A stretch of DNA of 64,000 nucleotides, from assembly GCA_963704675.1 (NCBI GenBank), contig OY969928.1, positions 631,539 to 695,538 on the forward strand. Direction: 5' to 3'. Numbering within the stretch: position 1 is the first letter of the stretch; every line of letters begins with the position of its first letter. The DNA comes from an uncultured Candidatus Saccharibacteria bacterium (GTDB lineage: Bacteria; Patescibacteriota; Saccharimonadia; Saccharimonadales; Saccharimonadaceae). The notes beneath the pieces are model-generated. The model searched no databases. It had not been told where the DNA came from and saw nothing but the letters and a program-made list of their open reading frames with translations. A program made the position numbers and the translations under genes. Below are positions 3,449 through 52,188 of the stretch, piece by piece.

Positions 3449-3540
3449 AGCGCTTCCCTCGCCTATGGCTCGTCGCTTCTCCGTTCGCTAGCTCACTACA
3501 CCGAACCTTGACGGTTCGAAACTCGCTACGCGAGTCTACC

Positions 3541-3654: not shown

Positions 3655-3713
3655 AAAATGGGTGATGCAATTGCATCACCCATAGTGTACGATAGATTTT
3701 CAATTACAGCGAG

Positions 3714-4244: not shown

Positions 4245-4337
4245 GTTCTTCCTTATTAATACTTAGGTTTTATACATTGTATCAGAAATAAACGACTGTA
4301 GATATTGTCAAAGTGTTAAAAAGGTTATAATAAAATT

Positions 4338-5243
4338 ATGTTTATTTCTGAGCTTATTGTTGATTTTATTGAACACGTTGAGGTTGAACGAGGACGATCG
4401 CAAAAGACAGCTGAAAATTATCATCTTTATCTTATGAGACTCGTAGAGTTTGCCGGAGACATTGATGTAAAAAAGATTGATAGCGAGCTTGTGCGTAAAT
4501 GGCGGCTTTGGCTTAATCGCTATAGGAACGACAACAATGGAGAGCTAGCAACTATTACACAAGGCTACCACCTTATCGCTCTTCGAAGTTTTTTGACCTA
4601 CTGCTCTAAACGAGATATTAAAACATTAACTCCAGAGAAAATTGAACTACCTAAAGTAAAACGAAAACAGGTTAGCTTCTTGCAGACTGAAGAAGTTGAA
4701 CGCCTACTAAATGCTATTAAAACCGACACTATCATTGGTCTTCGCGATAAGGCTATTGTTGAGCTGCTTTACTCAAGTGGCCTACGCGTTTCTGAGCTTA
4801 TTAATTTAAATCGCGATCACATTAACCTAAAGCGACGTGAATTTATGGTGCGTGGTAAGGGAGGGAAAGATCGGCCTGTCTTTATAAGCCAGCGTGCCGC
4901 GGCAGTGGTCACTGAATATCTAGAGAAGCGCCACGATACTATGCCCTCTTTATTTATTCGGTATAGCGGCAACGAGACAATTGATAACACGGGTGATTTT
5001 AAACGTTTGACCGCTCGCAGTATACAACGGTTAGTTGCTCGATATGCACTGTTAGCGGGGATTACGAAGCATGTTTCACCCCACACCCTACGCCATTCAT
5101 TTGCAACAAGTCTGCTAACGAATGGTGCGGATTTGCGATCAGTACAAGCTATGCTTGGGCACAGTAATATCGCCACAACCCAAATTTATACGCATGTTAC
5201 CGACCCACACCTCAAAGAAGTTTACGAAAAATTCCACGCCTAG
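4338..5243 (+). CDS. site-specific tyrosine recombinase, XerC/XerD family
   Basis: 301 aa with an N-terminal SAM-like domain. The catalytic region has ..GLRVSEL.., HTLRHSFATSLL and LGHSNIATTQIYTHV. Confidence 0.85.
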   Translation: MFISELIVDFIEHVEVERGRSQKTAENYHLYLMRLVEFAGDIDVKKIDSELVRKWRLWLNRYRNDNNGELATITQGYHLIALRSFLTYCSKRDIKTLTPEKIELPKVKRKQVSFLQTEEVERLLNAIKTDTIIGLRDKAIVELLYSSGLRVSELINLNRDHINLKRREFMVRGKGGKDRPVFISQRAAAVVTEYLEKRHDTMPSLFIRYSGNETIDNTGDFKRLTARSIQRLVARYALLAGITKHVSPHTLRHSFATSLLTNGADLRSVQAMLGHSNIATTQIYTHVTDPHLKEVYEKFHA

Positions 5244-13949: not shown

Positions 13950-13964
13950 ATATGCTAACTCATC

Positions 13965-14207
13965 CTACTGATCAAATGGTTGTTGATTTGCTGGATTACC
14001 AATTTCAATCACTACAGTTGGATCGATTGCTTGGTCGTTAAAAATCTTTTTGCTTGGTTCTGGTAATTCTGCCGAGATTGGCTCAACGACTTCAACTGTT
14101 TGGCGCTGACTACCAGGCTGACCAATTATTGCACTTAATGCAAAATAAGATACTAAAAGTGTCACTGAAACAATCAAAACGATGATTGCTATGTCGTTTT
14201 TTTTCAT
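13965..14207 (-). CDS. small single-pass membrane protein in the pilus operon
   Basis: 80 aa with one TM helix. It sits between the pilO-like gene and pilB. Confidence 0.4.
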   Translation of the reverse strand: MKKNDIAIIVLIVSVTLLVSYFALSAIIGQPGSQRQTVEVVEPISAELPEPSKKIFNDQAIDPTVVIEIGNPANQQPFDQ

Positions 14208-14845
14208 GACTTGACGACCTCTTTCTTTATCTCAACACCTTTAGCTGGTTGCCAGTAAGCCGTTATATCGAGTGCCAAGCGAGTATTCTTATCTGAGCCA
14301 GTCACGTTCATTGTATTAATAGTAATGGGCCGAATAACCCGTTCTAAATCGCGCACAAAGGCTAGAACTTGTTCATAGCTACCGCTTACAGTAATACTCG
14401 CATTGATAGGCTGTGGGCCACTAGCTTCATCAGATGGCTCTACGTCTTCTGCTTGGCTCTCGATCGACACACTTTCAAGCGTTACACCTGAAAGTGGTGT
14501 AATGACCTGCTGAATTGAAGTACCGAATGCACTTGTATCTTTTTCGCGAGGCAAGGCATTCAAAATCTTAGTTGAGCTCACGTTTTTATCGGTTCCTGCG
14601 TCAAGTGGCCCAAAGGCTTCTTTAAGCTTCACGATATTATTTTGATTTTCGGCTAAGGTGCTTGCGGCTTTAGATTTAGCGCTATATACATTGTTGTTAT
14701 ATAAAAATTGCTTATATAAGAATTGAGCCGCAACAAGCAAAATCGAGATTGCAATTGAAGCAATTGCGACCCAGGCAAACATTGTACGATTAGCACTACT
14801 AATTGCTTGGCGTTTCTTAAGACCAGTTGCACGTTTCAGTTCCAT
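14204..14845 (-). CDS. PilO-like pilus assembly protein
   Basis: 213 aa with a single TM followed by coiled coil. It follows pilN with overlapping stop and start. Confidence 0.5.
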   Translation of the reverse strand: MELKRATGLKKRQAISSANRTMFAWVAIASIAISILLVAAQFLYKQFLYNNNVYSAKSKAASTLAENQNNIVKLKEAFGPLDAGTDKNVSSTKILNALPREKDTSAFGTSIQQVITPLSGVTLESVSIESQAEDVEPSDEASGPQPINASITVSGSYEQVLAFVRDLERVIRPITINTMNVTGSDKNTRLALDITAYWQPAKGVEIKKEVVKS

Positions 14846-15576
14846 TAGTCATCTCCTTGGTCGCCTGAAGGATTGGCATTTTCGTCAAATATTGTATTGG
14901 CGCGCGATGGTGCACCAGTAATCGATTGTGTCGTTTGAATATTAGGTATATTTAATTTTACATCTTCAATGTTAGGATCAAATGCAAACTCGTTATAAGT
15001 TGCACGAACAATAAAACCTAACTCCTGCCTGCCTTGATTACGAGTAAGATTTTGGCTTTCAATTACAACACTATCAAACAGTTTGCCCGTCTGTTCTTCA
15101 TCATCTTCTTTATAAGTAAGCTCGGCATTAACAAGTGTGTCTTTAAAAATAGTGAAAGCTTGGAAATTACCAGCCACGCCATTAAACACAATTTCTTTAT
15201 TCTCTTGATCTGTTTGCAAACTTGAAAGCCGAATATTATTGGGTGGTGCTGGGTTTAAAACCTTAAGATATTCAAAAAGCCGTGAATATATGACTTTTTG
15301 ATCGTATAATTCTGGCAGTGCAATGAGTTGATTTTGAATAGTAAGGTATTTATCAATATCTTCTACCGACTTTAGGTCTTCTGTGCGTGTGTCAATTTCA
15401 GTTTGCTTACTAGCAATAAGTAGTGGCTGCCCCGCATAAACAGTCAGGAACAAGAAGACTGTCAAGCCAACTGCGCCTAGTGTGACTAAAATTGAAATAC
15501 CGATGACAGTCGTTTTTGTCCGCTGCGCCTGCAGAAACTCTTTTTTTACATCTGGTAGGAGATTTAACTGAATCAT
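14845..15576 (-). CDS. PilN-like pilus assembly protein
   Basis: N-terminal MIQLNLLPDVKKE (INLLP motif) followed by a TM helix. Confidence 0.6.
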   Translation of the reverse strand: MIQLNLLPDVKKEFLQAQRTKTTVIGISILVTLGAVGLTVFLFLTVYAGQPLLIASKQTEIDTRTEDLKSVEDIDKYLTIQNQLIALPELYDQKVIYSRLFEYLKVLNPAPPNNIRLSSLQTDQENKEIVFNGVAGNFQAFTIFKDTLVNAELTYKEDDEEQTGKLFDSVVIESQNLTRNQGRQELGFIVRATYNEFAFDPNIEDVKLNIPNIQTTQSITGAPSRANTIFDENANPSGDQGDD

Positions 15577-16610
15577 GCCGCTCTCTCCGCCAGACCAACA
15601 GCTACAGCGAATCTAGGTGCTAGCTGAAGCAGCGTTTGTTGATCGCCGCCAGCACGCACTCTTTGCCAGGGATTACCCGCCACTACCTGCAATCCGGTTT
15701 TGGTACTGACAAAATCATTAAATGCTGGCACCGAAACACCGTAACCCGTTAAAACAGCATTTTGAATAGGGAGGCTTGGATATCGTGTTTGAAAGAACTT
15801 TATCGTTTTTGTTAACTCTAAAACAAATTGCTCTAAAGTTGGTTCAAGCGATTTATAAATTTGACCCTCAAGCCTATCAGGATAAAGACCAAACTTCAGA
15901 ATAAATTGCATCGCCTGGTTCTGGTCAATACTAAGGTTTTGCTGAGCTGCTTTTACAAGTGTTTGCATGCCAGTTGGCAACGAACGCACAAGTCGGGGCG
16001 TATCACCAACAACCGCTACAATATCAGTTGAGAAATCTCCAAGATCAACAATTAATAAACCGTTTTGATTATCTTCAGGAGTAAGAGAACGCACAAGCGC
16101 TAATGGATCAGGCTCTAATGCAATAACATTGAGCCCCAAACCTTCAATAAGATCAAGGCGATCTTCGCTAAATTTATTAGCAACACTGGCGAGCAGTACT
16201 TCAATTTTATTCTCGTCTCTCAGTGATTTGCCCAAGACCGCCCAATCTATTTTTGCTTCTTCAATAGACATTGGAATATATTGCTCAGCTTGATATTTAA
16301 TTGTACTGGCTAATTCTTGTGGCGGTACATCTGGTAGATCAACAACTGTTACGAATGTTTTATTCGAAGGAACACCTACCACAACGTTTTTCGAAGTAAT
16401 ACCCGTTTGAGCAATAAGGTTCGTAATAACCTCACCTAATCGTTTTCGATCTTCGGGTGAGTCACTTGTAGCAACTTTCATATCAACAGGAGCTGAACCA
16501 TATCGAGCTAAGACCCAAGATCCTGGTGTACCTTTAAGTTCAATCGCTCGTACAGCGGTTGTGCCGATATCAAGTGCGAAGAAGTCGCCCACCGATTGAA
16601 ATAACTTCAT
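15573..16610 (-). CDS. pilM: type IV pilus assembly ATPase-like protein PilM (actin fold)
   Basis: 345 aa. ALDIGTTAVRAIEL and further actin-like phosphate motifs. It lies upstream of pilN. Confidence 0.8.
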   Translation of the reverse strand: MKLFQSVGDFFALDIGTTAVRAIELKGTPGSWVLARYGSAPVDMKVATSDSPEDRKRLGEVITNLIAQTGITSKNVVVGVPSNKTFVTVVDLPDVPPQELASTIKYQAEQYIPMSIEEAKIDWAVLGKSLRDENKIEVLLASVANKFSEDRLDLIEGLGLNVIALEPDPLALVRSLTPEDNQNGLLIVDLGDFSTDIVAVVGDTPRLVRSLPTGMQTLVKAAQQNLSIDQNQAMQFILKFGLYPDRLEGQIYKSLEPTLEQFVLELTKTIKFFQTRYPSLPIQNAVLTGYGVSVPAFNDFVSTKTGLQVVAGNPWQRVRAGGDQQTLLQLAPRFAVAVGLAERAA

Positions 16611-24125: not shown

Positions 24126-25154
24126 TCAGTTGTTCTGCAACCTGCCACGCCGTCGGTAAATGAACAACAACACACCACCAGCGATCAGCAGCAGGGCAGC
24201 GATGCCCAGCGGCCAGCCAATGCTGGCACCGGTCTCAGCCAGCTCCTCACCACCGGGCGTGTTGTTGCCCACCGGCACGATGCCAGGTGTGGTTGTGCTG
24301 GTGGTCGGAACGGTGGTGTCCGTCGTCGTGGTCGGGACCGTAGTGGTCGTGGTCGGCGGCGAGCACTCCTCGACCACCACCGTAGTGGTGGTTCCATTGT
24401 GCTTGTCACTGACGGTGAGCTTGTACTCACCGGCCGCGAGACCCGAGAAGACGACCTCGCCGCTTGCGTTGCCGGCGATCTCGAGCTTCTTGGGCTCCAG
24501 CCCACCGAGCTTGACCCCGTAGGTGACCTTGTAGTGGTTCGGGTTGGTGATCGTGACGGTCACCTCACCGTCCTTGTCACCCTCGGCGACACAGGCCTTG
24601 ACCTCGGCGCTGACTTCAGGCTTCGCCGGCTTGCACTTCTTGGCATCGTCGAAGCTCCACGGCTTCGGCCCGCTGAAGTAGTGCCACAGCAGGTGCGGCT
24701 CGTCCGGGTCGCCCAGCTTGTCCAGCGTGCCGGGAACGTTCGGCTTGACGCCCTTCTCGACGTACCCGTCGGTTTGCCCGCACACCTTGCGCGGCGGTGC
24801 CGCCACGGTATACTGGCCGGGCTGCTTGATCTCGATGGACTCGCCCGTACCCACCAGGGTCTGGGGCCACATCTCGCCCAGCTTGTCATAGCGCCAGGTC
24901 GCACCGACCGCAATGTACTTGTCGCAGAGCGGCAGCTTGCCGCCGACCGTGACGACCCACGTGAAGGGGTCCTTGGCGACGTAGCTGACGACCTTCTTGA
25001 CGGCCTCGTGGCCTTCGACGCACCTGGTGGTGGTCTTGACCTCGGGACCGCCCGGAACCGGCAATTCGGGTTGCGCCATCGCCGGCGTCCCGGCGAACAC
25101 CATGGCAATCATGGCCGAAGCCACGCCTGCCACAGCAAGAGATCTCTTGATCAT
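24126..25154 (-). CDS. sortase-anchored surface protein (LAETG motif) with Thr-rich linker; high-GC islet
   Basis: Signal peptide MIKRSLAVAGVASAMIAMVFAGTPAMAQP. Thr-rich run PPTTTTTVPTTTTDTTVPTTSTTTPG. C-terminal LAETG followed by a hydrophobic helix and an RRRGR tail. Confidence 0.8.
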   Translation of the reverse strand: MIKRSLAVAGVASAMIAMVFAGTPAMAQPELPVPGGPEVKTTTRCVEGHEAVKKVVSYVAKDPFTWVVTVGGKLPLCDKYIAVGATWRYDKLGEMWPQTLVGTGESIEIKQPGQYTVAAPPRKVCGQTDGYVEKGVKPNVPGTLDKLGDPDEPHLLWHYFSGPKPWSFDDAKKCKPAKPEVSAEVKACVAEGDKDGEVTVTITNPNHYKVTYGVKLGGLEPKKLEIAGNASGEVVFSGLAAGEYKLTVSDKHNGTTTTVVVEECSPPTTTTTVPTTTTDTTVPTTSTTTPGIVPVGNNTPGGEELAETGASIGWPLGIAALLLIAGGVLLFIYRRRGRLQNN

Positions 25155-26098: not shown

Positions 26099-26578
26099 AT
26101 GATGCCAACAGCCAGGTACAGCAACTACGAGCTCATTATCGAGCTAGAGAACTGCAACATTGACCTGGACGTATTCCGAGCAACACCAGAAGATTTCCTT
26201 GCACAGCTACGAGAACGCCGACGAATTCCCGATGGGCTGCGAGTGCTCATCGCCAAGCTGTTCCAGCAGAGGGTGATCACAGGCTGCGTCATTACTTATG
26301 GCAAGACAATGACGCTCCGGCTATCGCCGATTTGCCCGTCTGGCCACGATTTGCTACTGGATGGGGCTCTTGAGAAGTTTAAGGAGGTATACACCAGCAT
26401 TACCAAACAGCCAATCACGGTAGGCTGGGAAAGCTCAAGTAAAAAACGTTTTCTTTCGCGCAGGTCGCGGCGTGACTGTAGTGGAATCCTGGGAGGCATC
26501 GTTCAGATTGTTGACCTGGCCGCTGATGCAGTTGTTGCCGCTGCTGCCCTCAAGGAACTATTCGGCGATTCAGAGTGA
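26099..26578 (+). CDS. orphan hypothetical protein, moderately GC-enriched islet
   Basis: 159-aa ORF with an AGGAG RBS. No motif was recognised. Confidence 0.45.
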   Translation: MMPTARYSNYELIIELENCNIDLDVFRATPEDFLAQLRERRRIPDGLRVLIAKLFQQRVITGCVITYGKTMTLRLSPICPSGHDLLLDGALEKFKEVYTSITKQPITVGWESSSKKRFLSRRSRRDCSGILGGIVQIVDLAADAVVAAAALKELFGDSE

Positions 26579-29077: not shown

Positions 29078-29704
29078 ATGTCAAGACTACCAATACCCGG
29101 CGCAGACTTTGGAGACTGGGGAGAAATATTAAATGACTTTTTAAAACGCGAGCATACATCAGACGGTGCTTTAAAGATACGTGCTGACGGAACATTAAGT
29201 GGTTTATATAAAAAACCATCAAGCGGCATACCCGAAAACGATCTTGATAGCATTATTCAAAACAAACTGAACACCACTCTGCCCGCATCTACAAGCAGCC
29301 TTGGGGGGATTCAACTATCTGGTGATCTTGCAGGAAGCGCCACTACACCTGTTGTGCCGGCACTTAATACTAAGGCAGATATTGTCGAAGCTGTGAATAT
29401 CATAACTACTAGTAATAGTACCTTGACACTCCCAGATGTAACAACCGCTACCGTTCACGACGTTACACTTACTACCGATCTTATCATTACGCTGCCGACC
29501 CCTAGTGCCGGTAAAAGCTTGACACTTATCGTACGCCAAGATAGCAGTGGAGGACATAGTATTACTTGGCCTCCGGCGGTGAAATGGCCAAGCGGCATCC
29601 CAATGGAATTAACACCTACCGCAAATGCTATTGATGTTATCACATTTCTAGGGTTAAGTTCATCAGCGTGGCTTGGTTTTCAATCAGGATACGATCTACG
29701 ATGA
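29078..29704 (+). CDS. phage tail-fibre/receptor-binding-like protein
   Basis: The start MSRLPIPGADFGDWGEILNDFLKREHTSDGALK follows a GGAGG RBS. In my memory the N-terminal D-x-WG-x-ILN-x-FL..H..DG motif resembles actinophage minor tail proteins. The track ORF start at 28958 is less likely. Confidence 0.5.
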   Translation: MSRLPIPGADFGDWGEILNDFLKREHTSDGALKIRADGTLSGLYKKPSSGIPENDLDSIIQNKLNTTLPASTSSLGGIQLSGDLAGSATTPVVPALNTKADIVEAVNIITTSNSTLTLPDVTTATVHDVTLTTDLIITLPTPSAGKSLTLIVRQDSSGGHSITWPPAVKWPSGIPMELTPTANAIDVITFLGLSSSAWLGFQSGYDLR

Positions 29705-30873
29705 AAGCTGCTGTACGCATGAAGCAGCCGAGTTCAGTGCAGCAAGACTTAGTGATCCGTCGTGTCACCAACGAGCTCGCAATCTTTGGCCAGTGGTTAA
29801 ACAGAAATAACGTTAGAGGAGTTATCTCTGAAATTGGATGGCCTAACAACGCTTATCCTCAACTTTGGAATAATGTCGCTAAAGCATGGTATAGAGAAGC
29901 AAATAAATGGCACCTGCCCGTCCTTGCCTTTACCGCACAAGGCCCTGGCACGAATGTAGCGCAACTCACTATGTACAGCAGGAGTAATGGATCTGTTAGC
30001 GGCGGGCAATCTATAGATAAAGCAAATCAGCAGGCAAAAGTGAGCGAAGCATTTCAAACTACACCAGAATACTGGAGAGGCATTGATATATTCGGCGGTG
30101 CTGCCAACGATGGTGGCGGAGATGGTAACCCCTCTATCATGAATAATGTGCAGCAAAACACCTGGTGGTATGAAACGCCCGGCACATATACCTATTTAGC
30201 GAGTAGAGGTTATAAGGTTGCTCGTATAGGATTTCGATGGGAACGACTCCAACCAACACTAGGAGCTGCTCTCGACACTACAGAGGTAAACCGACTGCAG
30301 AATACTATTTCAAATGCTCAAAACGCTGGCATGCAGGTAGTGCTCGATCTACATAACTATAGTCGCTACGTGACTCCTAGTGGAGTCACTATACTTGGCA
30401 CAGCTCAACTACCGATAAGCGCCTTCATTGACGTATGGAGCCGCATTGCCACCACTTTTCAATCAAATACGGGTGTACTTGCCTACTCATTAATGAACGA
30501 GCCACATGATATGCCTCGAACGCCTCTGGGAGAGCCCTCTGCTAAGCACTGGGAGGCAGCGGCCCAATCAGCAGTCAATACAATTCGCCAAGCTGGAGAT
30601 ACTCACGAAATTCATGTTTCAGTTTATGAATGGGGGCGTGCACAAAACACTCCTCTTCACCATGCCACTGCATGGATCGTAGATCCAGCTAGCAATATAC
30701 GCTACGAAGCCCATCATTATCTCTACTTGCATCACGCTACGGCCATTAATTACCCAGATAGCTTCCAAACAGAGCTGCAAGATGCAAGTGGTATCTGGAC
30801 ACAAGAGATGACTCCAGGAAAACAGTGGGCCAATTACGCCAATTTAACATGGAATCAACTAATAGGAGCTTAG
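29701..30873 (+). CDS. glycoside hydrolase family 5 (cellulase-like)
   Basis: Acid/base region VLAYSLMNEPHD (NEP) and nucleophile region VSVYEWG. There is an ATGA overlap with the upstream stop. Confidence 0.65.
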   Translation: MKAAVRMKQPSSVQQDLVIRRVTNELAIFGQWLNRNNVRGVISEIGWPNNAYPQLWNNVAKAWYREANKWHLPVLAFTAQGPGTNVAQLTMYSRSNGSVSGGQSIDKANQQAKVSEAFQTTPEYWRGIDIFGGAANDGGGDGNPSIMNNVQQNTWWYETPGTYTYLASRGYKVARIGFRWERLQPTLGAALDTTEVNRLQNTISNAQNAGMQVVLDLHNYSRYVTPSGVTILGTAQLPISAFIDVWSRIATTFQSNTGVLAYSLMNEPHDMPRTPLGEPSAKHWEAAAQSAVNTIRQAGDTHEIHVSVYEWGRAQNTPLHHATAWIVDPASNIRYEAHHYLYLHHATAINYPDSFQTELQDASGIWTQEMTPGKQWANYANLTWNQLIGA

Positions 30874-30877
30874 AAAT

Positions 30878-31522
30878 ATGGCAACCTTTACACCAAACCT
30901 CGAATTAAAACAACATAACCCCAACGATCCTATTGACCCCGTTGATGCCTTTGCAAGTAACTTCGGTAAGATATCTGGGCTATATCAAGACGGCAATTCA
31001 ATATCAAATGGCATTTCGACATGTGACCGACGATTTGCAGATGGAACTATTACCCCGATCTCGGGCGAAATATACTTTTCTTATTTTACCTCGCCTCGAG
31101 GTAGCTTGAGCGGCGGCATTGTTTCTAAAATCGAATTAAGAACTGGTTCCCAGATTGCCAGTGGAGTAACCCTTGCACGTATTGGGCTTTATACTGTCAA
31201 TTCCGGTGATCAAGCATTAGCTCTCGTTGCCAGTACCGCAAATGAAACCAGCGGCTGGACAACTACTTTCACTGGTGTTGTTAAAAATCTTTCTGCTACC
31301 TATACGCTACAAGTTGGCAAACGCTATGCTCTAGGGGTTCTATTTGTGGCAACAACACCACCCAGCTACGTCCGCTACAAATGTAGCACCGATTTCGCTC
31401 TCAATGCTGTTCCCCCTCGCTTATGCGGCAAATTAGCCAGTCAATCTGACCTGCCTACCAACATCGCAGATAATATACTTGCGACAACTAGCGGAGGAGG
31501 CTTTGTTAGCCTTTTGCCATAA
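30878..31522 (+). CDS. hypothetical protein with phage tail-fibre-like N-terminus
   Basis: MATFTPNLELKQHNPNDPIDPVDAFASNFGKI resembles the TPNLGL..P...D......N...ID motif seen at N-termini of tail-fibre-type proteins. This is from memory. Confidence 0.4.
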   Translation: MATFTPNLELKQHNPNDPIDPVDAFASNFGKISGLYQDGNSISNGISTCDRRFADGTITPISGEIYFSYFTSPRGSLSGGIVSKIELRTGSQIASGVTLARIGLYTVNSGDQALALVASTANETSGWTTTFTGVVKNLSATYTLQVGKRYALGVLFVATTPPSYVRYKCSTDFALNAVPPRLCGKLASQSDLPTNIADNILATTSGGGFVSLLP

Positions 31523-31555: not shown

Positions 31556-31584
31556 TTGACATTACTCAATTATTATGTATAAAT
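31556..31584 (+). promoter_or_regulatory. near-consensus sigma70-type promoter in front of the glycosylation island
   Basis: TTGACA (31556-61), a 16-17 nt spacer, then TG-TATAAA(T). The context gtaTTGACa is shared with two other islet promoters. Confidence 0.5.
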
Positions 31585-31712
31585 GTAAGGAGCTTATAGA
31601 AGGCCAGCCCGAACAGGGCTGCTTTTTATGGGTGAAGGCGCTCTCGCTCAAAAAGCTAGGGGCCGCCTTTACAATTTGAAGTGTAGACAACGTTCTTTGA
31701 AAGGACTTCGTT

Positions 31713-34355
31713 TTGACGTCCCAGCAAGCCCCTGAGTATAGCGGCAAGAAGCGCAAGCTTCTGTTCGCTGCCGTGGGAATAACTGTAATGTTGCTCAGCT
31801 TTGTCGAGCTTTACGTCATGATCAGCATTTTCGGCATGGAAGCGTGGCTAGCCTACGCTATTCAGACAGTGCTGAGCGTGGAGCTCAACTTCGCGGGCAA
31901 CTGGATTCTCACTTTCCGTGACCGGAGACGCGAGAACAGCATCTGGAAGTCTTTACTGCTGTTTCACGCGACGCGAGTGTTCACCATCCCGTTCAACCAG
32001 GTCCTCTTCACCCTCCAGGTGTCGTGGGTACCGGTGTGGGAGTGGACAATCACAGCACCGTGGCCCATCAATCTCCTCGGAGAAAGCGGTCCGATCCTCA
32101 TTGCGCAAGCGGTGTGTATCGTCGCTACGACTGTTCTCAATTACGTCGCCGGTGACAAGCTGGCGTTCGGAGGAAAGTGGGCAAAAAAAGACTCAGCGCC
32201 GACGACATCACCGTTGCCGGCGCCAGAGTTGCCTGACAACCTTCCTTTCGTCAGCATCGTCATACCTGTTAAGAGCTCAGTGCCAACAGATACCCTGGAG
32301 GCACTTTGTCAGCAAACCTACCCCGGAGGCAACTTCGAGGTCATTGTGGTTGGCGACCTGGGCAGTCCAAGCCTTGCATCCATCAGGGAGCTGGACGTTC
32401 CATTCACTCTACAGGTACTCGAAGTTCAGGTTCGTACGCCGCGGCGTGATTCAAACGCCAAACGCGGGCGTGGTCTGAAAAAGGCGATCGGTGACATATT
32501 GGTCGTCATTGACGGTGACGTACTCCCTCGAAAGGAGTGGCTCTCACGAGTCGTCTCGCATCTTACCGTTGGCGGCCACCAGGCAGTCGCCGGCCCGCTC
32601 AGCGGGCACGGTGACTCTTGGTGGAATCGATACATCGACCACAATCGCATAGCCAGCAAAACACCTCGCATGACGACCGCTTATGAGGTCAACGGGTCAA
32701 ATACGCATCGCCGTAAGTTGCCCGTAACGGCTAATTTCGCGTGCCGCCGTGAGGTCTTCGAAAAAGTTGGCGGTCCGGATACTCGCTTCACCAATTCGTA
32801 CGAGGATTATTCGTGGTTCGAAACAATTGTGCAAAATGGCATAACCATTTACTGTGACCCGACGCTGGAAACCCCACGTCATCACCGAAGTGGGCTGTGG
32901 TCACTTCTCGACGAGTACAAGCGTTCAGGCATGGGCTGTGCTGACTTCATCGTCGCCTTCCCTTCCTCGCGCTTCGCTCGGAAACGAATTGTCCAGATCG
33001 TTTGCACAGCCGGTATCAGTATCGGCACCTTGGTGTGTGCATGGCTTAACCCCCTGCTGCTCACCGCGTTCGGTCCGTTCCTGGTACTAATCATGCTAGC
33101 CAACTGGGTCAACACAAAACGCACAGCAAGTCTCGCCTACCCGTTCGTGACCCTACTGCTTGCGAGCAGATTCCTACAAGGAGTATTCTCGCGCTTCCTG
33201 CGACAAGGCTTCCGTCACCCCACGGATTCCTATGTTGTTGAGGAACGATCATCGTTCACTGCCGGAGAAGCAGGCTGGCCATCAGTGAGCGTCGTAGTGC
33301 CCGTCAAGGATCGCCCTGGAACCATCCGCTCATTGGTTAACTCCTTGCTCGCCCAAGAATACAAGGGCGACATAGAGATTATCCTCGTGGGCGATGTGGG
33401 TGATACCACCTGGAATCCCATTCGATCCCTGATCGAGAAAGGGAAGATACGAGCCATAGAGGCTGATGTCGAATCCGCTGGACGTGATGCAAACGCCAAG
33501 CGTAATGTTGGTCTCACGGCTGCTAAGGGCGAGGTACTGATTCTCACCGACAGCGACATGGTTCTACCAAGTCACTGGCTTGAGAAGGGTGTCACGCTCA
33601 TGCGTCGGTCTGGCCACAAGATCGTGGCGGGGTCGATGCGAAGCGTAGAGGCAGCCGTCGAGAGCTCTTCGAGTTTTTGGGGGATGTACACCGATCTCAA
33701 TCCATTCGGAAGTAAAACCCCACGGATGGATCCAGCGTACGTCATTACGCCGCATAACCTCGGAAGGGGGAAAGAAAAGCCACCAATTACCGCGAGTATG
33801 TTCTTCGCACGCGAAGTGCTAGAAGCAACTGGCGGTCTCGATGCAAACTTTACCTCTCCGTACGAGGATTACCCCTTCGCCGATCAGATTATCGACGCAG
33901 GCTACTCGATCCTCTGCACGGATGAGCTGTCCGCCTACCACTACCATCGCGACGGCCTAAAGTCTCTCACCAAAGAGTACCTTCAGGCTGGTATCGGCTG
34001 TGCGGATTACATCCGCACATATCGCACCTCCCGATTTGCTGCAAAGCGTCTCGGGCAAGCGTTCGCGATGACTCTGTTCTTCATGACTGGCATTACGGCA
34101 ATGTGGCTGCTGCCCTTGGCAACAACGGCGGCTAGCTTCATCGGTATCACAGCGCTGGCTGGACTCAGCTGGCAGAAAACGAAACGCCCCATCGCGGCAA
34201 TCTTTCCGATCATCACAACTTACCTCGGCACTGTCTTCTACGTAGGGATAGTGACGGGAGCTGTAAGACGGTTTTGGTCAACCCAACCCGATACCCACAT
34301 CGTTGGAATACGGGAGATAACCGCAACGTTGGCACTGGAGGAAGACCATGTCTAA
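31713..34355 (+). CDS. fusion protein: GtrA-like N-terminal domain plus two tandem (GT2 glycosyltransferase + TM bundle) modules
   Basis: 880 aa with a TTG start. GtrA-like ..VLSVELNFAGNWILTFRDRR. GT2 module 1 is FVSIVIPVKS..VIDGDVLP. GT2 module 2 is VSVVVPVKDR..LTDSDMVLP. Each module is followed by GSKTPRM..YEDY..GCADF/Y..SRFA.KR and TM helices. Confidence 0.7.
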   Translation: MTSQQAPEYSGKKRKLLFAAVGITVMLLSFVELYVMISIFGMEAWLAYAIQTVLSVELNFAGNWILTFRDRRRENSIWKSLLLFHATRVFTIPFNQVLFTLQVSWVPVWEWTITAPWPINLLGESGPILIAQAVCIVATTVLNYVAGDKLAFGGKWAKKDSAPTTSPLPAPELPDNLPFVSIVIPVKSSVPTDTLEALCQQTYPGGNFEVIVVGDLGSPSLASIRELDVPFTLQVLEVQVRTPRRDSNAKRGRGLKKAIGDILVVIDGDVLPRKEWLSRVVSHLTVGGHQAVAGPLSGHGDSWWNRYIDHNRIASKTPRMTTAYEVNGSNTHRRKLPVTANFACRREVFEKVGGPDTRFTNSYEDYSWFETIVQNGITIYCDPTLETPRHHRSGLWSLLDEYKRSGMGCADFIVAFPSSRFARKRIVQIVCTAGISIGTLVCAWLNPLLLTAFGPFLVLIMLANWVNTKRTASLAYPFVTLLLASRFLQGVFSRFLRQGFRHPTDSYVVEERSSFTAGEAGWPSVSVVVPVKDRPGTIRSLVNSLLAQEYKGDIEIILVGDVGDTTWNPIRSLIEKGKIRAIEADVESAGRDANAKRNVGLTAAKGEVLILTDSDMVLPSHWLEKGVTLMRRSGHKIVAGSMRSVEAAVESSSSFWGMYTDLNPFGSKTPRMDPAYVITPHNLGRGKEKPPITASMFFAREVLEATGGLDANFTSPYEDYPFADQIIDAGYSILCTDELSAYHYHRDGLKSLTKEYLQAGIGCADYIRTYRTSRFAAKRLGQAFAMTLFFMTGITAMWLLPLATTAASFIGITALAGLSWQKTKRPIAAIFPIITTYLGTVFYVGIVTGAVRRFWSTQPDTHIVGIREITATLALEEDHV

Positions 34356-35832
34356 TATCAGACACCGCCACGCAGCAACCGTGGTAGGCAGTAAGGCGTT
34401 CTTACTCATCGGAGCAGTCATTGTCGTGCTCGGCGCTGCGCTCCGCTTCATCAACCTGTCCACTTGGCCGGGGGTGGAGTGGGACGAGAACGTCTACCGA
34501 GTAGTCGGTGAGCACGTCGCCCAGGCCGGTGACATCACCGCCAAAACCGAATACCTGGCCGCCGCTGAGCCGTACCTCTATCACCCGCCGTTCCACTTCG
34601 TGGTACTGGGCGGATGGTTCGAGATCTTTGGTTCATCGCTCCTGGCAGCTCGGGCACTTGCCGTTGTGGCATCTCTTGTCATGATGGTGGTGCTCAGTTA
34701 CTTCCTACGCTGGATGATCGGCAACTGGGCACTCCTGGCCGTCGGTCTCATCACCGTCGACGTGTGGATGATCTTCTCGAACCGCGTCTCGTGGATCGAG
34801 AACATCATGATCCCCGTGGGGATCATTGGCCTGTGGCTGTACCGTCGGGGCAGCGAGAAACATTCTTCTCGACTGTTCATCGCGGCCGGGATCGTACTTG
34901 GTCTGGCCGTCGCCTACAAGCACATCGGGCTCATTTTCCCGCTGGCTGTGGGCATCTGTTGGCTGCTCATGCGCAGACTTCACAACCTGCACGTGAAACT
35001 GTTCGCTGCTTTCGCGGCAACAAGTGGCCTCTACGTGGCTGCAATGGCACTGATCTTCGGCAAGGTGTACTTCGAGCAATCCGGCATCCAGTTCTTCCGT
35101 AGCACTGGAAGTCGCGAGTCTCGGGGTGCGCTCAACCTGAGCAACGTCATCACGCCGCTCGTCGATCAGTATGCCGTCTTCGTTGCAACCATGGTACTCG
35201 CGCTGGCGGCCGTGGTCCTGCTCCTGGTGCGCACTGCTCGAATCATCCAGCAGCGTAGCCTGGTCAGCCTGCAGCAGCACACGCTACTGTATGCTTGGGC
35301 AATGGCAGCACTGCTGTTCTTCCTGGTCCTCCAACTCCGTTTTCCCCACTACTTCATGCTCATGCTCATCCCACTGTTCTGCTATCTCGTCGCCGAGATC
35401 AAGTGGTTCAGCGAGAAGAGGCGTGCCAACGGCTCCAACCCCGCAGAGATGCGCAGGGTGATCGCGATCTGCGCCGTACTGGCGCTCGCGTTGAATGTCA
35501 ACGCCTTCATCCAGCGCTTCGTTACTCAAACCAGTGACGATGCGTTGACGGCAACGGCGAACTGGATGTCAGCAAACGCGCCGGCAGACGCCAAGGTTAT
35601 CACCGAAGAATCTGTCGGCTCCACCATCGGACAGCCTTACTGCAAGATCTGGAAGGGTGACGGCTGCGTCGGCGCCGAGTACGTGATTGTCTACACTTCG
35701 CACACGCAGAAGATCCCGGATAACCCCGGTCTTCGCCGCCTGATCGCCTCCGCTGGGTCCCCCGTCTTCACGACGCGGGGCTACAAGGAGATGATTACCG
35801 TGTACAAGCTGCCCTCTCCTGTGAGCGGCTAA
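34348..35832 (+). CDS. polytopic GT-C fold glycosyltransferase (PMT_2 / GT39 / ArnT-like)
   Basis: 494 aa with at least 10 TM segments. The first-loop acidic motif is EWDENVY (DE motif). It has a GGAGGA RBS and an 8-nt overlap with the upstream gene. Confidence 0.55.
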   Translation: MSNIRHRHAATVVGSKAFLLIGAVIVVLGAALRFINLSTWPGVEWDENVYRVVGEHVAQAGDITAKTEYLAAAEPYLYHPPFHFVVLGGWFEIFGSSLLAARALAVVASLVMMVVLSYFLRWMIGNWALLAVGLITVDVWMIFSNRVSWIENIMIPVGIIGLWLYRRGSEKHSSRLFIAAGIVLGLAVAYKHIGLIFPLAVGICWLLMRRLHNLHVKLFAAFAATSGLYVAAMALIFGKVYFEQSGIQFFRSTGSRESRGALNLSNVITPLVDQYAVFVATMVLALAAVVLLLVRTARIIQQRSLVSLQQHTLLYAWAMAALLFFLVLQLRFPHYFMLMLIPLFCYLVAEIKWFSEKRRANGSNPAEMRRVIAICAVLALALNVNAFIQRFVTQTSDDALTATANWMSANAPADAKVITEESVGSTIGQPYCKIWKGDGCVGAEYVIVYTSHTQKIPDNPGLRRLIASAGSPVFTTRGYKEMITVYKLPSPVSG

Positions 35833-35839
35833 CACGATC

Positions 35840-35885
35840 AAGGGCCCCGTGCGCATGCAATCAAATGCAAGCGTTCGGGGCCCTT
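35840..35885 (+). terminator. 10-bp perfect GC hairpin after the GT-C gene
   Basis: aagggccccg ... cggggccctt with a 26-nt loop. Confidence 0.4.
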
Positions 35886-35957
35886 TCAAATTGTATAACT
35901 TTAGCCGTTCTGGATTGGGTGTAATTTTCGAATAAAAAGTCTTCAGAAAAGCGCTCG

Positions 35958-35988
35958 CCTGGGGTCGTGGTTTGTCCACGACCCCAGG
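35958..35988 (-). terminator. 13-bp perfect GC hairpin after the Ppm1-like gene
   Basis: cctggggtcgtgg-tttgt-ccacgaccccagg, 12 nt past the stop codon. Confidence 0.6.
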
Positions 35989-36000
35989 CATTGACACCCT

Positions 36001-36774
36001 TTAGCTACTGGCGACCAGCGCACGCCTAGTAGCAAATCGCAACCGCAGCAATTGCCGCACGAATTTGAAGCCCGTGCGAATGTCGCTCTTTGTGTTACCG
36101 GCCGTTCGTTCACCGAACTGCATCGGTAGTTCCAGAATGCGCAGGCCGCGATGAGCACACAGCAGTTCGACCAAGATCTTGAATCCGTCAGACTTCAGAC
36201 GATCAATGTCAACAGCCGAACGACGAAATACGAAGTAACCGGTCATCGGATCGCTCACTTCGCCAAGCAGACGTGGGAACAATAACTTCGCCGCCAAGTT
36301 CGTGCCACGCGAAACAACGTGCCGCATGAACCCGTTCAACCCATCGGCACTGCCGCCACTGCGATAACGGCTCGTCGTGACTACGTCTACACACTCTGCT
36401 ATCTGGAATAGTAGCCTCGAGAGATAGGCGGGGTGTTGACCATCACCGTCAATGACACAAACGTATTCGTCAGTACTGCACATGCGAATACCGTGTACCA
36501 CCGCACCCGACAAGCCGTCGATGCGCTCCGCCCCCACCCGACGGAACCCCTCGACAACAAAACGCGACGTGCCAAACTCGGCAGCCGCGGTGGTAACAGC
36601 ATCTACCGTGGCAGTATTCTTGCTATCATCGATGACAAGCAGGCGAGTTACACCATCCAGCGGTGCCACCGCTTCTCTCAATAACTTCACCAGCAAGCTG
36701 ATGTTCTGGGCTTCATCGATTGTCGGCGCAATGATTGTACGTGTCGGAGCGTTGTGCTCGCGGACAGCAGACAT
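36001..36774 (-). CDS. polyprenol-phosphate glycosyltransferase (GT2; Ppm1/DPM1/GtrB-like)
   Basis: ..LLVIDDSKN..VCVIDGDGQHPP-like (DGDGQHPA)..SDPMTGYFVFRR..GFKILVELL..ERTAGNTK. The start at Met37 (36774) is preceded by GGAGG. Confidence 0.8.
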   Translation of the reverse strand: MSAVREHNAPTRTIIAPTIDEAQNISLLVKLLREAVAPLDGVTRLLVIDDSKNTATVDAVTTAAAEFGTSRFVVEGFRRVGAERIDGLSGAVVHGIRMCSTDEYVCVIDGDGQHPAYLSRLLFQIAECVDVVTTSRYRSGGSADGLNGFMRHVVSRGTNLAAKLLFPRLLGEVSDPMTGYFVFRRSAVDIDRLKSDGFKILVELLCAHRGLRILELPMQFGERTAGNTKSDIRTGFKFVRQLLRLRFATRRALVASS

Positions 36775-37056
36775 CAATACCTCCAAGAGAGCTATGTACT
36801 CCATGCAGCATCTTGACCGCTTTTGCGGATGTCGTCCTACATTATACATTAAACTAAATATTTTGTAAACTAATATATGCAAAAATTATTTCTAAAAGAC
36901 CAAACATATAACGTATTGATCAGCGCCGCGCAGAAAAAGGCCACCTCTATACTTACAGCCAGTATTACTCACAAGGGGCATGATTAAGCGCAACGACTAT
37001 TACGACAACGAGAGTCATATTTACGCCTCAGATGGCACTAACTGGTGTATCGCTGG

Positions 37057-43770: not shown

Positions 43771-44322
43771 ATGCGGGTTCGATTCTACGTCAGCATGGAC
43801 AAAACCGGCTTCGAGAACGACGAAAACGACCCAGTCTACAAGATCATCCAGCGGATTCGCAACGATTTTGCCGCAAGAGAGGCAAGCTCGCACTACAGCT
43901 CAGAGCCGGTTCGCATCCAGGGCGTCGGCTTCTTCCAGAACGAGGAAGGAACGTATGCCGAGTTCGAGCACTTCTTGTTCGGCCTTCCAACTGCCATTGT
44001 CGACGAGCTCTACTTGAGCGTTCGCCGTGTCGAAATCCATGAGGAGTTTCCGCTGCCAAGCAGTGGCTTCTCGAAAGCGACCTTCACGATGCCCCAGGGG
44101 GACTACGAACACAATGGCGCCGAGGCCATCGTCTACGAAGCTCCAACTGCGGGCGGCGTATCGCGTCAGATTCGCGTTCGGGTAGTCGCTGAGACTCTCG
44201 ACAAGGCTGTCGAACTCTTCAACCTCATTCGCGAGGGCGAGGGCGAGCCGGTTCGCCACTGGATTGATCAGCCGAAGAAGAACGAGCAGAACGACGCGGT
44301 CCCCAGCGAGCAGCCGACATGA
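43771..44322 (+). CDS. orphan hypothetical protein (high-GC islet)
   Basis: 183-aa ORF with an AAGGAG RBS. No motif was recognised. Confidence 0.5.
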   Translation: MRVRFYVSMDKTGFENDENDPVYKIIQRIRNDFAAREASSHYSSEPVRIQGVGFFQNEEGTYAEFEHFLFGLPTAIVDELYLSVRRVEIHEEFPLPSSGFSKATFTMPQGDYEHNGAEAIVYEAPTAGGVSRQIRVRVVAETLDKAVELFNLIREGEGEPVRHWIDQPKKNEQNDAVPSEQPT

Positions 44323-44522: not shown

Positions 44523-45608
44523 TTAGCGAGCAGGAAGGTTGCGCAGTTGCGCCGCCAGAGCTTCGCCTTGGAAACCTTCGGCAGACTTCTGTTCACCTTC
44601 GATACGAATCCACCACTTGAGGTGGTCGTGTGGCAGCGCAGGCAAGAGACTGCCTTCTGCGACAGCGGCGATCAGCGCTCGCTTCCTTGCCTTCGCTTCT
44701 TCCCTGTCCTTCAACTTGGGGTTAAAAGCACTAAGAGGAATGACCACGCAAGCAGCAGCTTGCCGCTGCTCACCCTCGCCCTTGTAAGCGTAGTTGACCT
44801 TCAACTTCGGGTCAGCTTCGTTCTTCGGTGCCACGAGGCCATCAGGATACGGGATCTCCAGGGGTGCCCAGTCAATCTCCTCGTCACTTTCGGAGACAGC
44901 CGCGAAGTCCTCAAGCTTGAGATGCAAGTCAACGTCGCAGAACTCAGCGAGAGTCGTCACCTTGGCGGCCTTGAGTTTTTCTCGGTAGAACTCTTCGAGC
45001 GAAGGAACCTCCACGTACTCACCCGCACCGCGAAGCACAAGCAGCTCCAATTGCTCCAGCACGTCACGGTTGTGCGAGTGCAGACTCCACCCGCCCAACC
45101 TTTCGGCCAGAAGCTCTTCCAGGATGAGCTCCAGCGGATCGCTTATAGTGATGCGTTCAAATTCGGTGCACACCGCCTGTACCGCTTTTTTGATTGAAGC
45201 AAGCACGGTGGCATGTCTACTATACGAGTTATGGAGCCTTTCGTATGCCTTTTGGATTAGCGCATTGAGGTCGGCAGTCGGGAGTATGTTGACAAGTTTG
45301 TCTCGCTCCATCGAAAGCCGCCGCAACTCCTCTCTTGCATGGAGATTAACTAGAGCAGATGAAGCGTGTTCTAGACTAAGAATTCGCTGCCTTGATCCGC
45401 CACGCGTGGTAACATAAATGTCTCCCCGTGTCGCCGCTTTTATCTCAGGCCAAGTCAACAGTCTACCTTCAGCCTCGGGCATTAGCTCGAGGTTCGCAAA
45501 CAGATAGCCCCGACTAGTAGCATCATACTTTACCACACCGCACATCACACCATCAACGATGATGTCTTCGTCGGCGGGCATGGTGATCTGGGGCTCGGTG
45601 AAGCTCAT
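44523..45608 (-). CDS. orphan hypothetical protein (high-GC islet)
   Basis: 361-aa ORF with an AAGAGG RBS. No motif was recognised. It is convergent with ORF 43771. Confidence 0.5.
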   Translation of the reverse strand: MSFTEPQITMPADEDIIVDGVMCGVVKYDATSRGYLFANLELMPEAEGRLLTWPEIKAATRGDIYVTTRGGSRQRILSLEHASSALVNLHAREELRRLSMERDKLVNILPTADLNALIQKAYERLHNSYSRHATVLASIKKAVQAVCTEFERITISDPLELILEELLAERLGGWSLHSHNRDVLEQLELLVLRGAGEYVEVPSLEEFYREKLKAAKVTTLAEFCDVDLHLKLEDFAAVSESDEEIDWAPLEIPYPDGLVAPKNEADPKLKVNYAYKGEGEQRQAAACVVIPLSAFNPKLKDREEAKARKRALIAAVAEGSLLPALPHDHLKWWIRIEGEQKSAEGFQGEALAAQLRNLPAR

Positions 45609-51279: not shown

Positions 51280-52188
51280 CTACTCATCAGCGAAAAGCGC
51301 TTCGCCGCGCCGGTTGGTTAGCCACAAGGGGCGTGGTCCAACGCGAATCTTGCCCGGGCGCACGTTGTGAAGGCTGAACTCGGGATAATCCTGCCGTTCT
51401 TGGCCGTACAGGCCCGAGAGGCAGAGCCGGTTCTTACGAGCAAAACTCCGGCCGGGGTCGCGGCCACAGTTCGCCGCCATGTGCAGCTGCTGGGGGTCCC
51501 ACAGCGTCGTATCTTCGGGAATGATGACGGTGTGATTGGCCGGATTGAAGTGTTCCCGGCCGATACCTGTCGCCCCGAATGTGCCGATGACATCGCCGGC
51601 CCGCACTGGAATACCCAGCCGACGGAGCTCGTCTTGAGTTTTCATGACACCCGATGGATGCCAATCGAACTCATCCGTTTGAACGGCTGGCAAGTACGGA
51701 ATATCTTCCGCAACCGAGCCCAGGTGAATCAGCTGTGTGGTCAACTTACCGAAACCTGGCACATCAACGTGTTCGTGCTGGATTTCGACAAATAGCCCGG
51801 CACCGCCCCCATAGACAACATCATTCTCAATTCGAAGTGTCAAGAACTGGTAGCTGCACCAGGCGATGCCATCTGCCGGCGCCAGGATCGGTACCCCCAG
51901 CTCCAGACCTTCAAAGTCGAGCGCCTGGTGCGAGTTGTCGTCCCAGCCAATGAGCGGCATCTCGTCGGCAGCATCGAAGAAGCCATTCGTGACAGTCAGC
52001 TTGGAAGCGTCACACTTGCGGAATGGCTGCTTCAAGCATGGCGGTGGCACCACCCGCTCACGCGGTGTTGGGTCGAGTCGCGGACGATGATGCTGGTTTG
52101 ATGCGGCCATTGCCTCGTCAACGCTCACCGAGCCAACGGCTCCGACCGCCACAGCGCCCATGAGGACGCTCCTTCTAGAAGCACACAT
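51280..52188 (-). CDS. Tat-signal secreted M23/LytM-like metallopeptidase (high-GC islet)
   Basis: Twin-arginine N-terminus MCASRRSVLMGAVAVGA..AMAA. M23-like blocks are SHQALDF (HxxxD), GVPILAPADGIA, GLFVEIQH, TQLIHLGS and VRAGDVIGTFGATG. The terminal HxH is not obvious. Confidence 0.55.
   Translation of the reverse strand: MCASRRSVLMGAVAVGAVGSVSVDEAMAASNQHHRPRLDPTPRERVVPPPCLKQPFRKCDASKLTVTNGFFDAADEMPLIGWDDNSHQALDFEGLELGVPILAPADGIAWCSYQFLTLRIENDVVYGGGAGLFVEIQHEHVDVPGFGKLTTQLIHLGSVAEDIPYLPAVQTDEFDWHPSGVMKTQDELRRLGIPVRAGDVIGTFGATGIGREHFNPANHTVIIPEDTTLWDPQQLHMAANCGRDPGRSFARKNRLCLSGLYGQERQDYPEFSLHNVRPGKIRVGPRPLWLTNRRGEALFADE

Follow-up and report, generated by a model that had tools for sequence, protein, structure and literature searches.

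Saccharibacteria live attached to Actinomycetota, and to our knowledge almost nothing has been learned about the glycans of their envelopes. How such a cell might assemble a surface glycoconjugate is the question raised by three intact genes at positions 31713-36774 of a 64,000-nucleotide stretch of an uncultured Candidatus Saccharibacteria genome (assembly GCA_963704675.1, contig OY969928.1, positions 631,539 to 695,538), the whole of which is called the window here. The genes encode an 880-residue fusion of a GtrA domain with two membrane-attached family 2 glycosyltransferase (GT2) modules, a 494-residue polytopic protein of the GT-C type and, convergent to these, a 257-residue soluble GT2 resembling dolichyl phosphate mannose synthase (DPMS). 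The cassette is probably a lipid-carrier-dependent extracytoplasmic glycosylation system built around the GT-C enzyme; this reading, already offered in an original prediction made from the sequence without database searches, is supported by the ArnT-like model of the GT-C protein and by the likeness of the small GT2 to the DPMS of Pyrococcus furiosus. New here are the uncharacterised GT-C family, the extra cellulose-synthase-like membrane GT2 fused to GtrA, and the splitting of a DPMS. As a candidate for surface glycoconjugate synthesis, the cassette is compact, conserved yet variable in Saccharibacteria, and shared with Actinomycetota; the three-component paradigm would be widened by knowledge of its donor, its acceptor and the order in which its enzymes act. 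Cultured Saccharibacteria are now genetically manipulable.

Enzymes encoded by the cassette

The open reading frames (ORFs), quoted motifs and family assignments of the original prediction (GtrA, two GT2 modules with transmembrane (TM) helices, GT-C, and a DPM1/Ppm1-like enzyme) hold, and so does its description of a GC-rich island: GC content is 0.55-0.58 against about 0.44 for the window, and GC content at third codon positions (GC3) reaches 0.63 in the 880-residue gene, 0.76 in the GT-C gene and 0.60 in the DPMS-like gene, the median of the window being 0.38 (robust z scores 7-13). The cassette is not the sole GC-rich spot, at least five further window genes having GC3 values of 0.57-0.85, and the rest of the window carries Saccharibacteria-type housekeeping genes. 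For the convergent gene, the mechanical ORF (36001-36882, minus strand) would encode 293 residues; its true start is most likely the ATG at 36774, giving 257 residues, because a GGAGG lies 7 nt upstream, a promoter match falls inside the longer ORF, and the form held in the database (P0039) has 257 residues.

The 494-residue protein matches PMT_2 (PF13231) at 39.7 bits against a cut-off of 26.1 and comprises about 10-12 TM helices and a 100-residue C-terminal extracytoplasmic alpha/beta domain. Its N-terminus is basic, and its acidic first outer loop carries the motif EWDENVY at residues 44-50, of which W45-D46-E47 is invariant in 17 homologues, as are many charged residues elsewhere. When an AlphaFold (AF2) model built from the 17 homologues (predicted local distance difference test, pLDDT, 83.9) was compared with the PDB by Foldseek, ArnT (5F15) emerged as the top match (E 1e-8, TM-score about 0.55, 14% identity), followed by STT3, ALG12, AftA, PglB, DPY19, AftD and Pmt4, and every match at E <= 0.001 was a GT-C enzyme; likewise, ArnT was the sole PDB entry retrieved by the sequence profile (E 8e-5). 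The protein thus matches GT-C families both in Pfam and by fold, which the original prediction had named as a check. Assignment as ArnT itself (GT83; 5EZM/5F15) goes too far: beyond the low identity and modest TM-score, no NCBIfam ArnT match and no arnABDEF genes were found in the window, and a Gram-positive-type Saccharibacterium has no lipid A. By its modelled fold, the protein is a predicted GT-C outside any characterised family; its own family is a small one, comprising 164 clusters at 50% identity and E <= 1e-30 among 1.84 billion representatives.

These data bear on two alternative functions of the GT-C protein. The original prediction had pointed to protein O-mannosylation by a Ppm1 plus Pmt pair, with the LAETG-bearing protein encoded at 24126-25154 as the substrate, a proposal in line with the first-loop DE motif, the PMT_2 match, the name 'GT39 family' that NCBI gives to relatives, and the Thr-rich linker and likewise high-GC origin (GC3 0.85) of the LAETG protein. 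It is nevertheless very unlikely, given that Pfam finds neither PF02366 nor PMT_4TMC in the 494-residue protein (PF02366 matches weakly in a few relatives), that the profile search passes over the yeast Pmt proteins in favour of ArnT, that Pmt4 ranks 21st by fold, and that two membrane GT2 modules and a GtrA domain have no role in Ppm1/Pmt systems; moreover, a homologue of the LAETG protein accompanies the cassette in no related locus, and its gene lies 7 kb off, beyond housekeeping genes. Alternatively, the protein could act mainly as a flippase of lipid-linked glycans rather than as a transferase. Its sole NCBIfam match is TIGR03663 (Agl23, residues 21-395), and Agl23 flips lipid-linked glycans in proteoliposomes (PMC11182771), yet the score of 32.1 bits falls far short of the cut-off of 126.25, the outer-loop D-E pair is conserved together with many invariant charged residues of the kind found in catalytic GT-C enzymes, and a GtrA domain is already there for flipping, all of which make this alternative extremely unlikely.

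The convergent 257-residue protein matches Glycos_transf_2 in Pfam and contains the motifs DGDGQH, SDPMTGYF and GFKIL. In a phmmer comparison it aligns with the type III DPMS of P. furiosus (5MLZ) over residues 26-246 of the chain, which is the whole catalytic domain (E 1.2e-26), the alignment taking in DxD...QHP and the DP.(S/T)G(F/Y)F acceptor-loop region; its match to ArnC is weak (about 1e-3), and its NCBIfam matches (AglJ, dolichyl phosphate (Dol-P) hexose transferase, ArnC) are all below cut-off. It has no hydrophobic segment and hence no usual membrane anchor. Outside Saccharibacteria, its nearest homologues are actinobacterial GT2+GtrA_DPMS_TM fusions (e.g., Cryobacterium WP_280680367), to which it is 42-44% identical; identity to the cassette genes of other phyla is 30-36%. 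From these comparisons, the protein appears to have lost the C-terminal GtrA_DPMS_TM domain carried by its actinobacterial homologues. Unlike in type III DPMS, the GtrA-like domain is found not in the same chain but at the N-terminus of the 880-residue protein, so that the enzyme is split and rearranged. As a side observation, the gene for one such fusion of the Microbacteriaceae type (P0043) comes directly after one for a PMT/PMT_2 GT-C and adjoins a gene of glycoside hydrolase family 26 (GH26, a mannanase family), at 1708-5752 of locus L034 (GCA_031365725.1, contig JANLYQ010000088.1); the pair resembles the logic of the cassette reduced to two genes.

In the 880-residue protein, PF04138 (GtrA_DPMS_TM) matches residues 18-152 (53.3 bits, cut-off 26.1), and the AF2 model places helices at residues 8-39, 44-67, 77-112 and 117-151. 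Each of the two GT2 domains that follow is succeeded by 2-3 hydrophobic segments. The conserved residues of module a are VVGD218, R245-D246, D267xD269, Y363-E364-D365 and H391-R392, and the D, DxD, ED and HR(E/S)G motifs are kept in both modules (alignment A4 covers module b). The modules are 34% identical to each other; the clade of a-type modules has a bootstrap of 92-99/100, and module b groups with module 2 of a related Saccharibacteria locus (L002) in 95/100. A recent tandem duplication is ruled out by the low identity and by the finding of the two modules as sisters in 0/100 bootstraps; judging from their sequences, they seem to be old paralogues. An assembly or frameshift artefact was likewise considered as the source of the fusion and ruled out, the frame being open and the junctions recurring elsewhere: the GtrA-GT2a junction is common to P0021 of locus L001, and the GT2a-GT2b junction to P0020 of L002.

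The membrane GT2 modules stand apart from the known synthases of lipid-linked sugars. In Foldseek searches with a model of the GtrA domain and module a (pLDDT 83.4), the best matches were PcManGT (6YV7), BcsA and hyaluronan synthase (HAS), and no DPMS, GtrB or ArnC chain appeared in the top 50. Similarly, when a profile of 25 modules was run against the PDB, DPMS, ArnC and GtrB ranked below many GT2 enzymes with sugar acceptors, and the longest profile coverage was obtained with glucosylceramide (GlcCer) synthase. The best NCBIfam matches of the 880-residue protein (MftF, EpsD, HpnI and AglG) are all below cut-off; for MftF (TIGR03965), the score is 160.5 bits against an equivalog cut-off of 280, and no mft genes lie nearby. 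Of the marks of processive cellulose-synthase-like GT2 enzymes (BcsA, HAS, NodC), the modules have the D, DxD and ED motifs, but HR(E/S)G replaces QxxRW, each module has only 2-3 hydrophobic segments where a multi-helix translocation channel would be expected, and scores with the NodC and CelA models fall well short of their cut-offs. PcManGT, a minimal cellulose-synthase-like enzyme of archaeal N-glycan assembly, is among the closest known systems, as are MftF, HpnI and the GT21 GlcCer synthase; the D, DxD and ED motifs are shared, as is a GT-A domain with interface and membrane helices after it. The modules differ in being only 17% identical to PcManGT, in having HR(E/S)G where QxxRW would stand, and in being duplicated and fused to GtrA. 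The modules define an uncharacterised family and, on their modelled fold and sequence profile, would constitute a fourth function unlike GtrB, DPMS and ArnC, one that the 'three-component' label of the original prediction leaves out of its count.

One reading of this resemblance is that the modules make the acceptor: they would synthesise a glycolipid anchor or short polymer, after the manner of lipoglycan/lipomannan pathways, MftF, HpnI or GlcCer synthase, and the GT-C enzyme would extend or decorate it outside, using the polyprenyl phosphate (Pren-P)-linked sugar made by the 257-residue enzyme. The family's likeness to lipid and small-molecule glycosyltransferases (the MftF score, HpnI and Glyco_transf_21) and the coverage obtained with GlcCer synthase fit this proposal, which needs all four functions, in line with the conserved four-gene operon described below, and which may be compared with the pairing of P0043 with a PMT-like GT-C and a GH26 mannanase. 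It is nonetheless improbable: all NCBIfam scores are far below equivalog cut-offs, a secretion channel is unlikely because of the 2-3 hydrophobic segments per module and the lack of QxxRW, and no conserved genes for lipid-anchor biosynthesis lie nearby.

Recurrence, fusion and mechanism

To place the cassette among relatives, the GT-C alignment was scanned against one genome per species, yielding 25 loci whose ORFs were searched with the window domains. The same set (DPMS-like GT2, GtrA, membrane GT2 and GT-C) recurs as a tight co-directional operon in Solirubrobacterales (Baekduia, Conexibacter, Solirubrobacter) and in other metagenome-assembled genomes of Actinomycetota, and is also found in Desulfobacterales, other Patescibacteria, many Saccharibacteria and, more distantly, Rhizobiaceae. 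The DPMS-like GT2 accompanies the other three in 18 of about 25 informative loci. GtrA is a separate gene in L002 and L003 and is fused to GT2 in L001, L004 and L007, while the GT2 modules number one or two, the window and L002 having two. Further fusions join the parts into single chains: GtrA-GT2-GT2-GT-C (P0086, 1544 residues), GtrA-GT2-GT-C (P0028, P0099, P0114 and P0117), GT2-GT-C (P0078 and P0080; such fusions are found in Ktedonobacterales) and GtrA-GT-C (P0118). These single chains are strong evidence that GtrA, membrane GT2 and GT-C act as one machine, and the claim of the original prediction that the genes form one functional unit is upheld by clustering across several phyla and by the fusions.

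Multi-component systems of GtrA, GT2 and GT-C proteins are widespread and well reviewed, with examples in the GtrA/GtrB/Gtr(type) systems of Shigella and Salmonella phages, CsbB/GtcA/YfhO and GtlA/GtlB in Firmicutes, and PpgS/Rv3632/Rv3779 in mycobacteria (PMC8035078, PMC11127046). The cassette shares with Gtr-type systems a GT2 of the DPMS/GtrB/ArnC family acting at the cytoplasmic face, a four-helix GtrA element, a GT-C with an acidic first-loop motif, and clustering of the genes. It departs from them in that its synthase-like GT2 lacks a membrane anchor, its GtrA is fused to two membrane GT2 modules of the cellulose-synthase-like branch, and its GT-C comes from a small uncharacterised family with 14% identity to ArnT. 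In the haloarchaeal Dol-P pathway (AglJ/AglG...Agl22/Agl23), a glycan linked to a monophosphate lipid is built inside and used outside (PMC11182771), and the best NCBIfam matches of the 257-, 880- and 494-residue proteins are, weakly, AglJ, AglG and Agl23; in this case, however, the scores are far below cut-offs, the window has no AglB-type oligosaccharyltransferase, and the host is bacterial. The 'GtrA-dependent' gsf cluster of Actinoplanes (PMC13390465) consists of other genes and lacks a GT-C, and a literature search linking Saccharibacteria with GtrA found no match.

From gene structure, family and fold assignments, conserved motifs, clustering and fusions, we infer a four-step route that combines Gtr/Csb/Arn logic with an added elaboration at the cytoplasmic face, and put it forward with evenly balanced confidence. 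The soluble 257-residue DPMS-type GT2 would charge polyprenyl phosphate with a hexose taken from a nucleotide sugar at the membrane, where it would probably dock on the GtrA_DPMS_TM domain at the N-terminus of the 880-residue protein. The PcManGT-like modules would then add at least one further sugar to the lipid-linked intermediate on the cytoplasmic face, the GtrA domain would move the lipid-linked glycan across the membrane, and the ArnT-like GT-C would transfer it to an acceptor outside the membrane, which may be a wall polymer, a lipid or a protein. The order of these steps and the identities of sugar and acceptor are provisional, and the weakest step is the role given to the membrane GT2 modules, whose presence would suggest an intermediate more elaborate than a single Pren-P-sugar.

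Several observations weigh against this route. GT-C enzymes with polyprenyl-monophosphate donors normally transfer single sugars, and the precedent for a Pren-P-oligosaccharide donor comes mainly from archaeal AglB pathways. Both the GT-C family and the membrane GT2 family are uncharacterised; the geometry between the GtrA and GT2 domains is uncertain in the model (predicted TM-score 0.66); and an exact match to the 880-residue protein is absent from a collection of 5.8 billion proteins that holds its neighbours P0001 and P0039, although the gene may have been annotated as a pseudogene, or missed, in the source annotation. The tree of the DPMS-like gene, on which a separate Microbacteriaceae-like origin would turn, has bootstraps of 18-50/100. 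Lastly, no DPMS-like gene lies within 8-10 kb of the GtrA-GT2 and GT-C genes in L001, L004, L006, L007, L016 and L029, so the GtrA-GT2 plus GT-C block may be self-sufficient and the membrane GT2 itself may be a lipid-sugar synthase.

If so, the block would be a self-contained three-component system, in which each membrane GT2 would be a GtrB-like synthase (hence two sugars), GtrA would flip and the GT-C would transfer single sugars, with the 257-residue enzyme as a third, separable donor synthase or as a servant of another pathway. Along with the two-gene blocks that have no DPMS-like gene nearby, the occurrence of GtrA-GT2-GT-C as one polypeptide favours this arrangement, as does the GtrB-like succession of a GT-A domain and 2-3 C-terminal hydrophobic segments in each module; in L003, moreover, GtrA, GT2 and GT-C have apparently been replaced while the DPMS-like gene was kept, and the block therefore behaves like a unit of its own. 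Set against these points, neither by sequence nor by fold are the modules particularly close to DPMS, GtrB or ArnC, in contrast to the 257-residue protein; the modules bear the ED and HR(E/S)G motifs typical of the branch of cellulose-synthase-like, GT21 and MftF enzymes; and at most loci outside Saccharibacteria the DPMS-like gene sits tightly within the operon. On balance, the self-contained arrangement is unlikely, and the four-step route is preferred.

Position, composition and exchange of the locus

The site of the cassette between ftsK and rpsF is shared by related Saccharibacteria. In L002, FtsK is 86% identical to that of the window and the same genes lie between ftsK and rpsF in rearranged order; in L003 (FtsK 71% and RNase J 72% identical), the cassette adjoins ftsK in the same convergent arrangement; and in L005 it adjoins rpsF-ssb-efp. 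Because the same site is used in these relatives, the cassette is ancestral there rather than a private insertion, and acquisition by this genome alone is excluded. A prophage or island insertion was also rejected, given the lack of flanking direct repeats and of a nearby tRNA and the absence of the GT-C from phage records (no match in 50,697); no integrase turned up in Pfam scans of the neighbouring ORFs.

Fixed as its position is, the content of the locus varies. Compared with the window, the DPMS-like gene of L003 is 62% identical and its GT-C, GT2 and GtrA genes merely 31-35%, and the L003 GT-C falls outside the main Saccharibacteria clade in an unbootstrapped tree; sequence comparison thus suggests that the GtrA/GT2/GT-C block has been replaced in L003. 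The closest GT-C (58%) belongs to L001, where the cassette occupies another chromosomal site. Composition is atypical as well. The original prediction had named the presence of the island at native GC in relatives as a check, and related Saccharibacteria do have it, though with a GC content that is not native to them: the cassette has a higher GC3 than its flanks in L001 (0.79-0.88 against about 0.5-0.59), L003 and L005, and slightly so in L002, whereas in Actinomycetota cassette GC3 is native. In trees, the GT-C of Solihabitans, an actinomycete, falls outside the Saccharibacteria clade in 0/100 bootstraps, and a Solirubrobacterales-type clade is separate in 100/100.

With its fixed position, atypical GC, and varying modules and alleles, the locus behaves as a variable surface-glycan locus, and high-GC Actinomycetota are likely exchange partners. 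By analogy, the pattern would resemble O-antigen and capsule loci, with their fixed site, odd composition, variable content and repeated exchange. A bolder interpretation would treat [GtrA-GT2(n)-GT-C] as a swappable 'serotype' cassette exchanged with actinobacterial hosts, in effect an assembly line that would build, on one polypeptide, a polyprenyl-monophosphate-linked oligosaccharide for transfer outside the cell, a chemistry otherwise known from haloarchaeal glycosylation. This interpretation is distinctly improbable; if it were true, the cassette could, in analogy to the seroconversion modules of phages, enable the episymbiont either to imitate an envelope glycan of its host or to mask its own wall from its own host-directed glycanases. 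The original prediction had likewise supposed that the cell glycosylates its surface in a host-like way; suggestive as they are, neither the pattern of evolution nor the neighbouring tail-fibre and glycanase genes of actinophage-like character show host mimicry.

The locus may be larger in some relatives. At L003 12759-18449, genes for three more proteins come after the cassette: a UDP-glucose/GDP-mannose dehydrogenase, a protein with a polysaccharide deacetylase domain and the conserved N-terminal motif of the tail-fibre-like family described below, and an Acyl_transf_3/SGNH O-acyltransferase; the dehydrogenase and acyltransferase genes are GC3-rich (0.81-0.88), and the deacetylase gene has a GC3 of 0.51.

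Coordinates, transcription signals and neighbouring genes

The features of the cassette are collected in Table 1.

Table 1. Genes, domains and candidate signals of the cassette, in window coordinates
Feature	Position	Strand	Remarks
Promoter-like TTGACA-16-TATAAA	31556..31585	+	Read directly from the sequence
Terminator-like hairpin	31601..31630	+	GC stem, 5-nt loop, T5 run; 31605-31621 then CTTTTTATGG; -27.4 kcal/mol, z -2.7
880-residue gene	31713-34355	+	TTG start; AAGGA Shine-Dalgarno 7 nt upstream
GtrA_DPMS_TM domain, residues 1-165	31713..32207	+	Four-helix membrane domain; proposed flippase and/or partner of soluble DPMS-like enzyme
Membrane GT2 module a, residues 166-505	32208..33227	+	GT-A domain then C-terminal membrane helices; Pfam GT2 families
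Membrane GT2 module b, residues 506-880 and stop codon	33228..34355	+	Glycos_transf_2 at residues 526-648; paralogue of module a
GT-C gene, 494 residues	34348-35832	+	ATG start; 8-nt overlap with stop of 880-residue gene
Stable hairpin 3' of GT-C gene	35840..35885	+	20-nt arms, 85% complementary; -35.3 kcal/mol, z -7.0
GC-rich hairpin 3' of convergent GT2	35957..35989	-	Perfect, 14 bp; repeat I4; -37.7 kcal/mol, z -6.1
Soluble DPMS/Ppm1-type GT2 gene, 257 residues	36001-36774	-	Predicted catalytic subunit of polyprenyl-phosphate hexose synthase
Promoter-like TTTACA-17-TATAAT	36841..36869	-	11/12 match; upstream of ATG 36774 of 257-residue gene

The original prediction had placed a near-consensus promoter to the left of the cassette and perfect hairpins after both transcription units. 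The role of the first as the cassette promoter is doubtful because a terminator-like hairpin with a T run (31605-31630) intervenes before the start codon of the 880-residue gene; the consensus scan did not list this match, the final base of its -10 hexamer being A. Probably the hairpin terminates the tail-fibre-like operon that lies upstream, or else it serves as an attenuator in the leader. As for the hairpins at the convergent ends, the description fits the one that follows the DPMS-like gene, whereas the one after the GT-C gene has imperfectly complementary arms; a canonical T tail is absent from both. At the gathering threshold, Rfam lists no known RNA family anywhere near the cassette.

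Immediately upstream lie three genes (29078-29704, 29668-30873 and 30878-31522) for a member of a polymorphic family, a GH5 glycanase and a 214-residue ORF, a trio conserved in L002. The polymorphic family adjoins the glycosylation cassette in many Saccharibacteria loci and is also found at L002 606-7047, L030 9641-13138, L029 11142-12683 and L003 14282-16375. Its N-terminus of about 35 residues is conserved (M(S/T/I)RLPxPGxDxGxWGxxLNx(F/Y)L...H..DG), has no obvious signal peptide and is about 50% identical to Streptomyces phage proteins; its C-terminal domains vary (DUF5907/phiTE_241_C, pectate-lyase fold, polysaccharide deacetylase, and others that have no assignment), with matches to minor tail proteins of Curtobacterium phages and, in PHROGs, to tail fibres. 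The members may be episymbiont proteins for host recognition or the degradation of host glycans.

The LAETG protein, encoded on the minus strand, is a secreted protein of 342 residues with a signal peptide, a Thr-rich linker, the LAETG sortase motif, a TM helix and a basic tail, and it has no Pfam match. The GC content of its gene is 0.64, and its GC3 is the most extreme of the window; since LAxTG is the usual motif of class E sortases in actinobacteria, Actinomycetota are the probable source of the gene. GC3 values of 0.57-0.73 are found in four more ORFs for which Pfam gives no match (26099-26578 and 43771-44322 on the plus strand, 44523-45608 and 51280-52188 on the minus strand), which suggests several independent high-GC acquisitions scattered among housekeeping genes. 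Further away, type IV pilus genes (PilB-like T2SSE ATPase, PilO, PilM; 12174-16610, minus strand) lie upstream of a 778-residue ORF that has no Pfam match and of a PG_binding_4/beta-lactamase-family protein; the pilus cluster is typical Saccharibacteria surface machinery, unrelated to the cassette.

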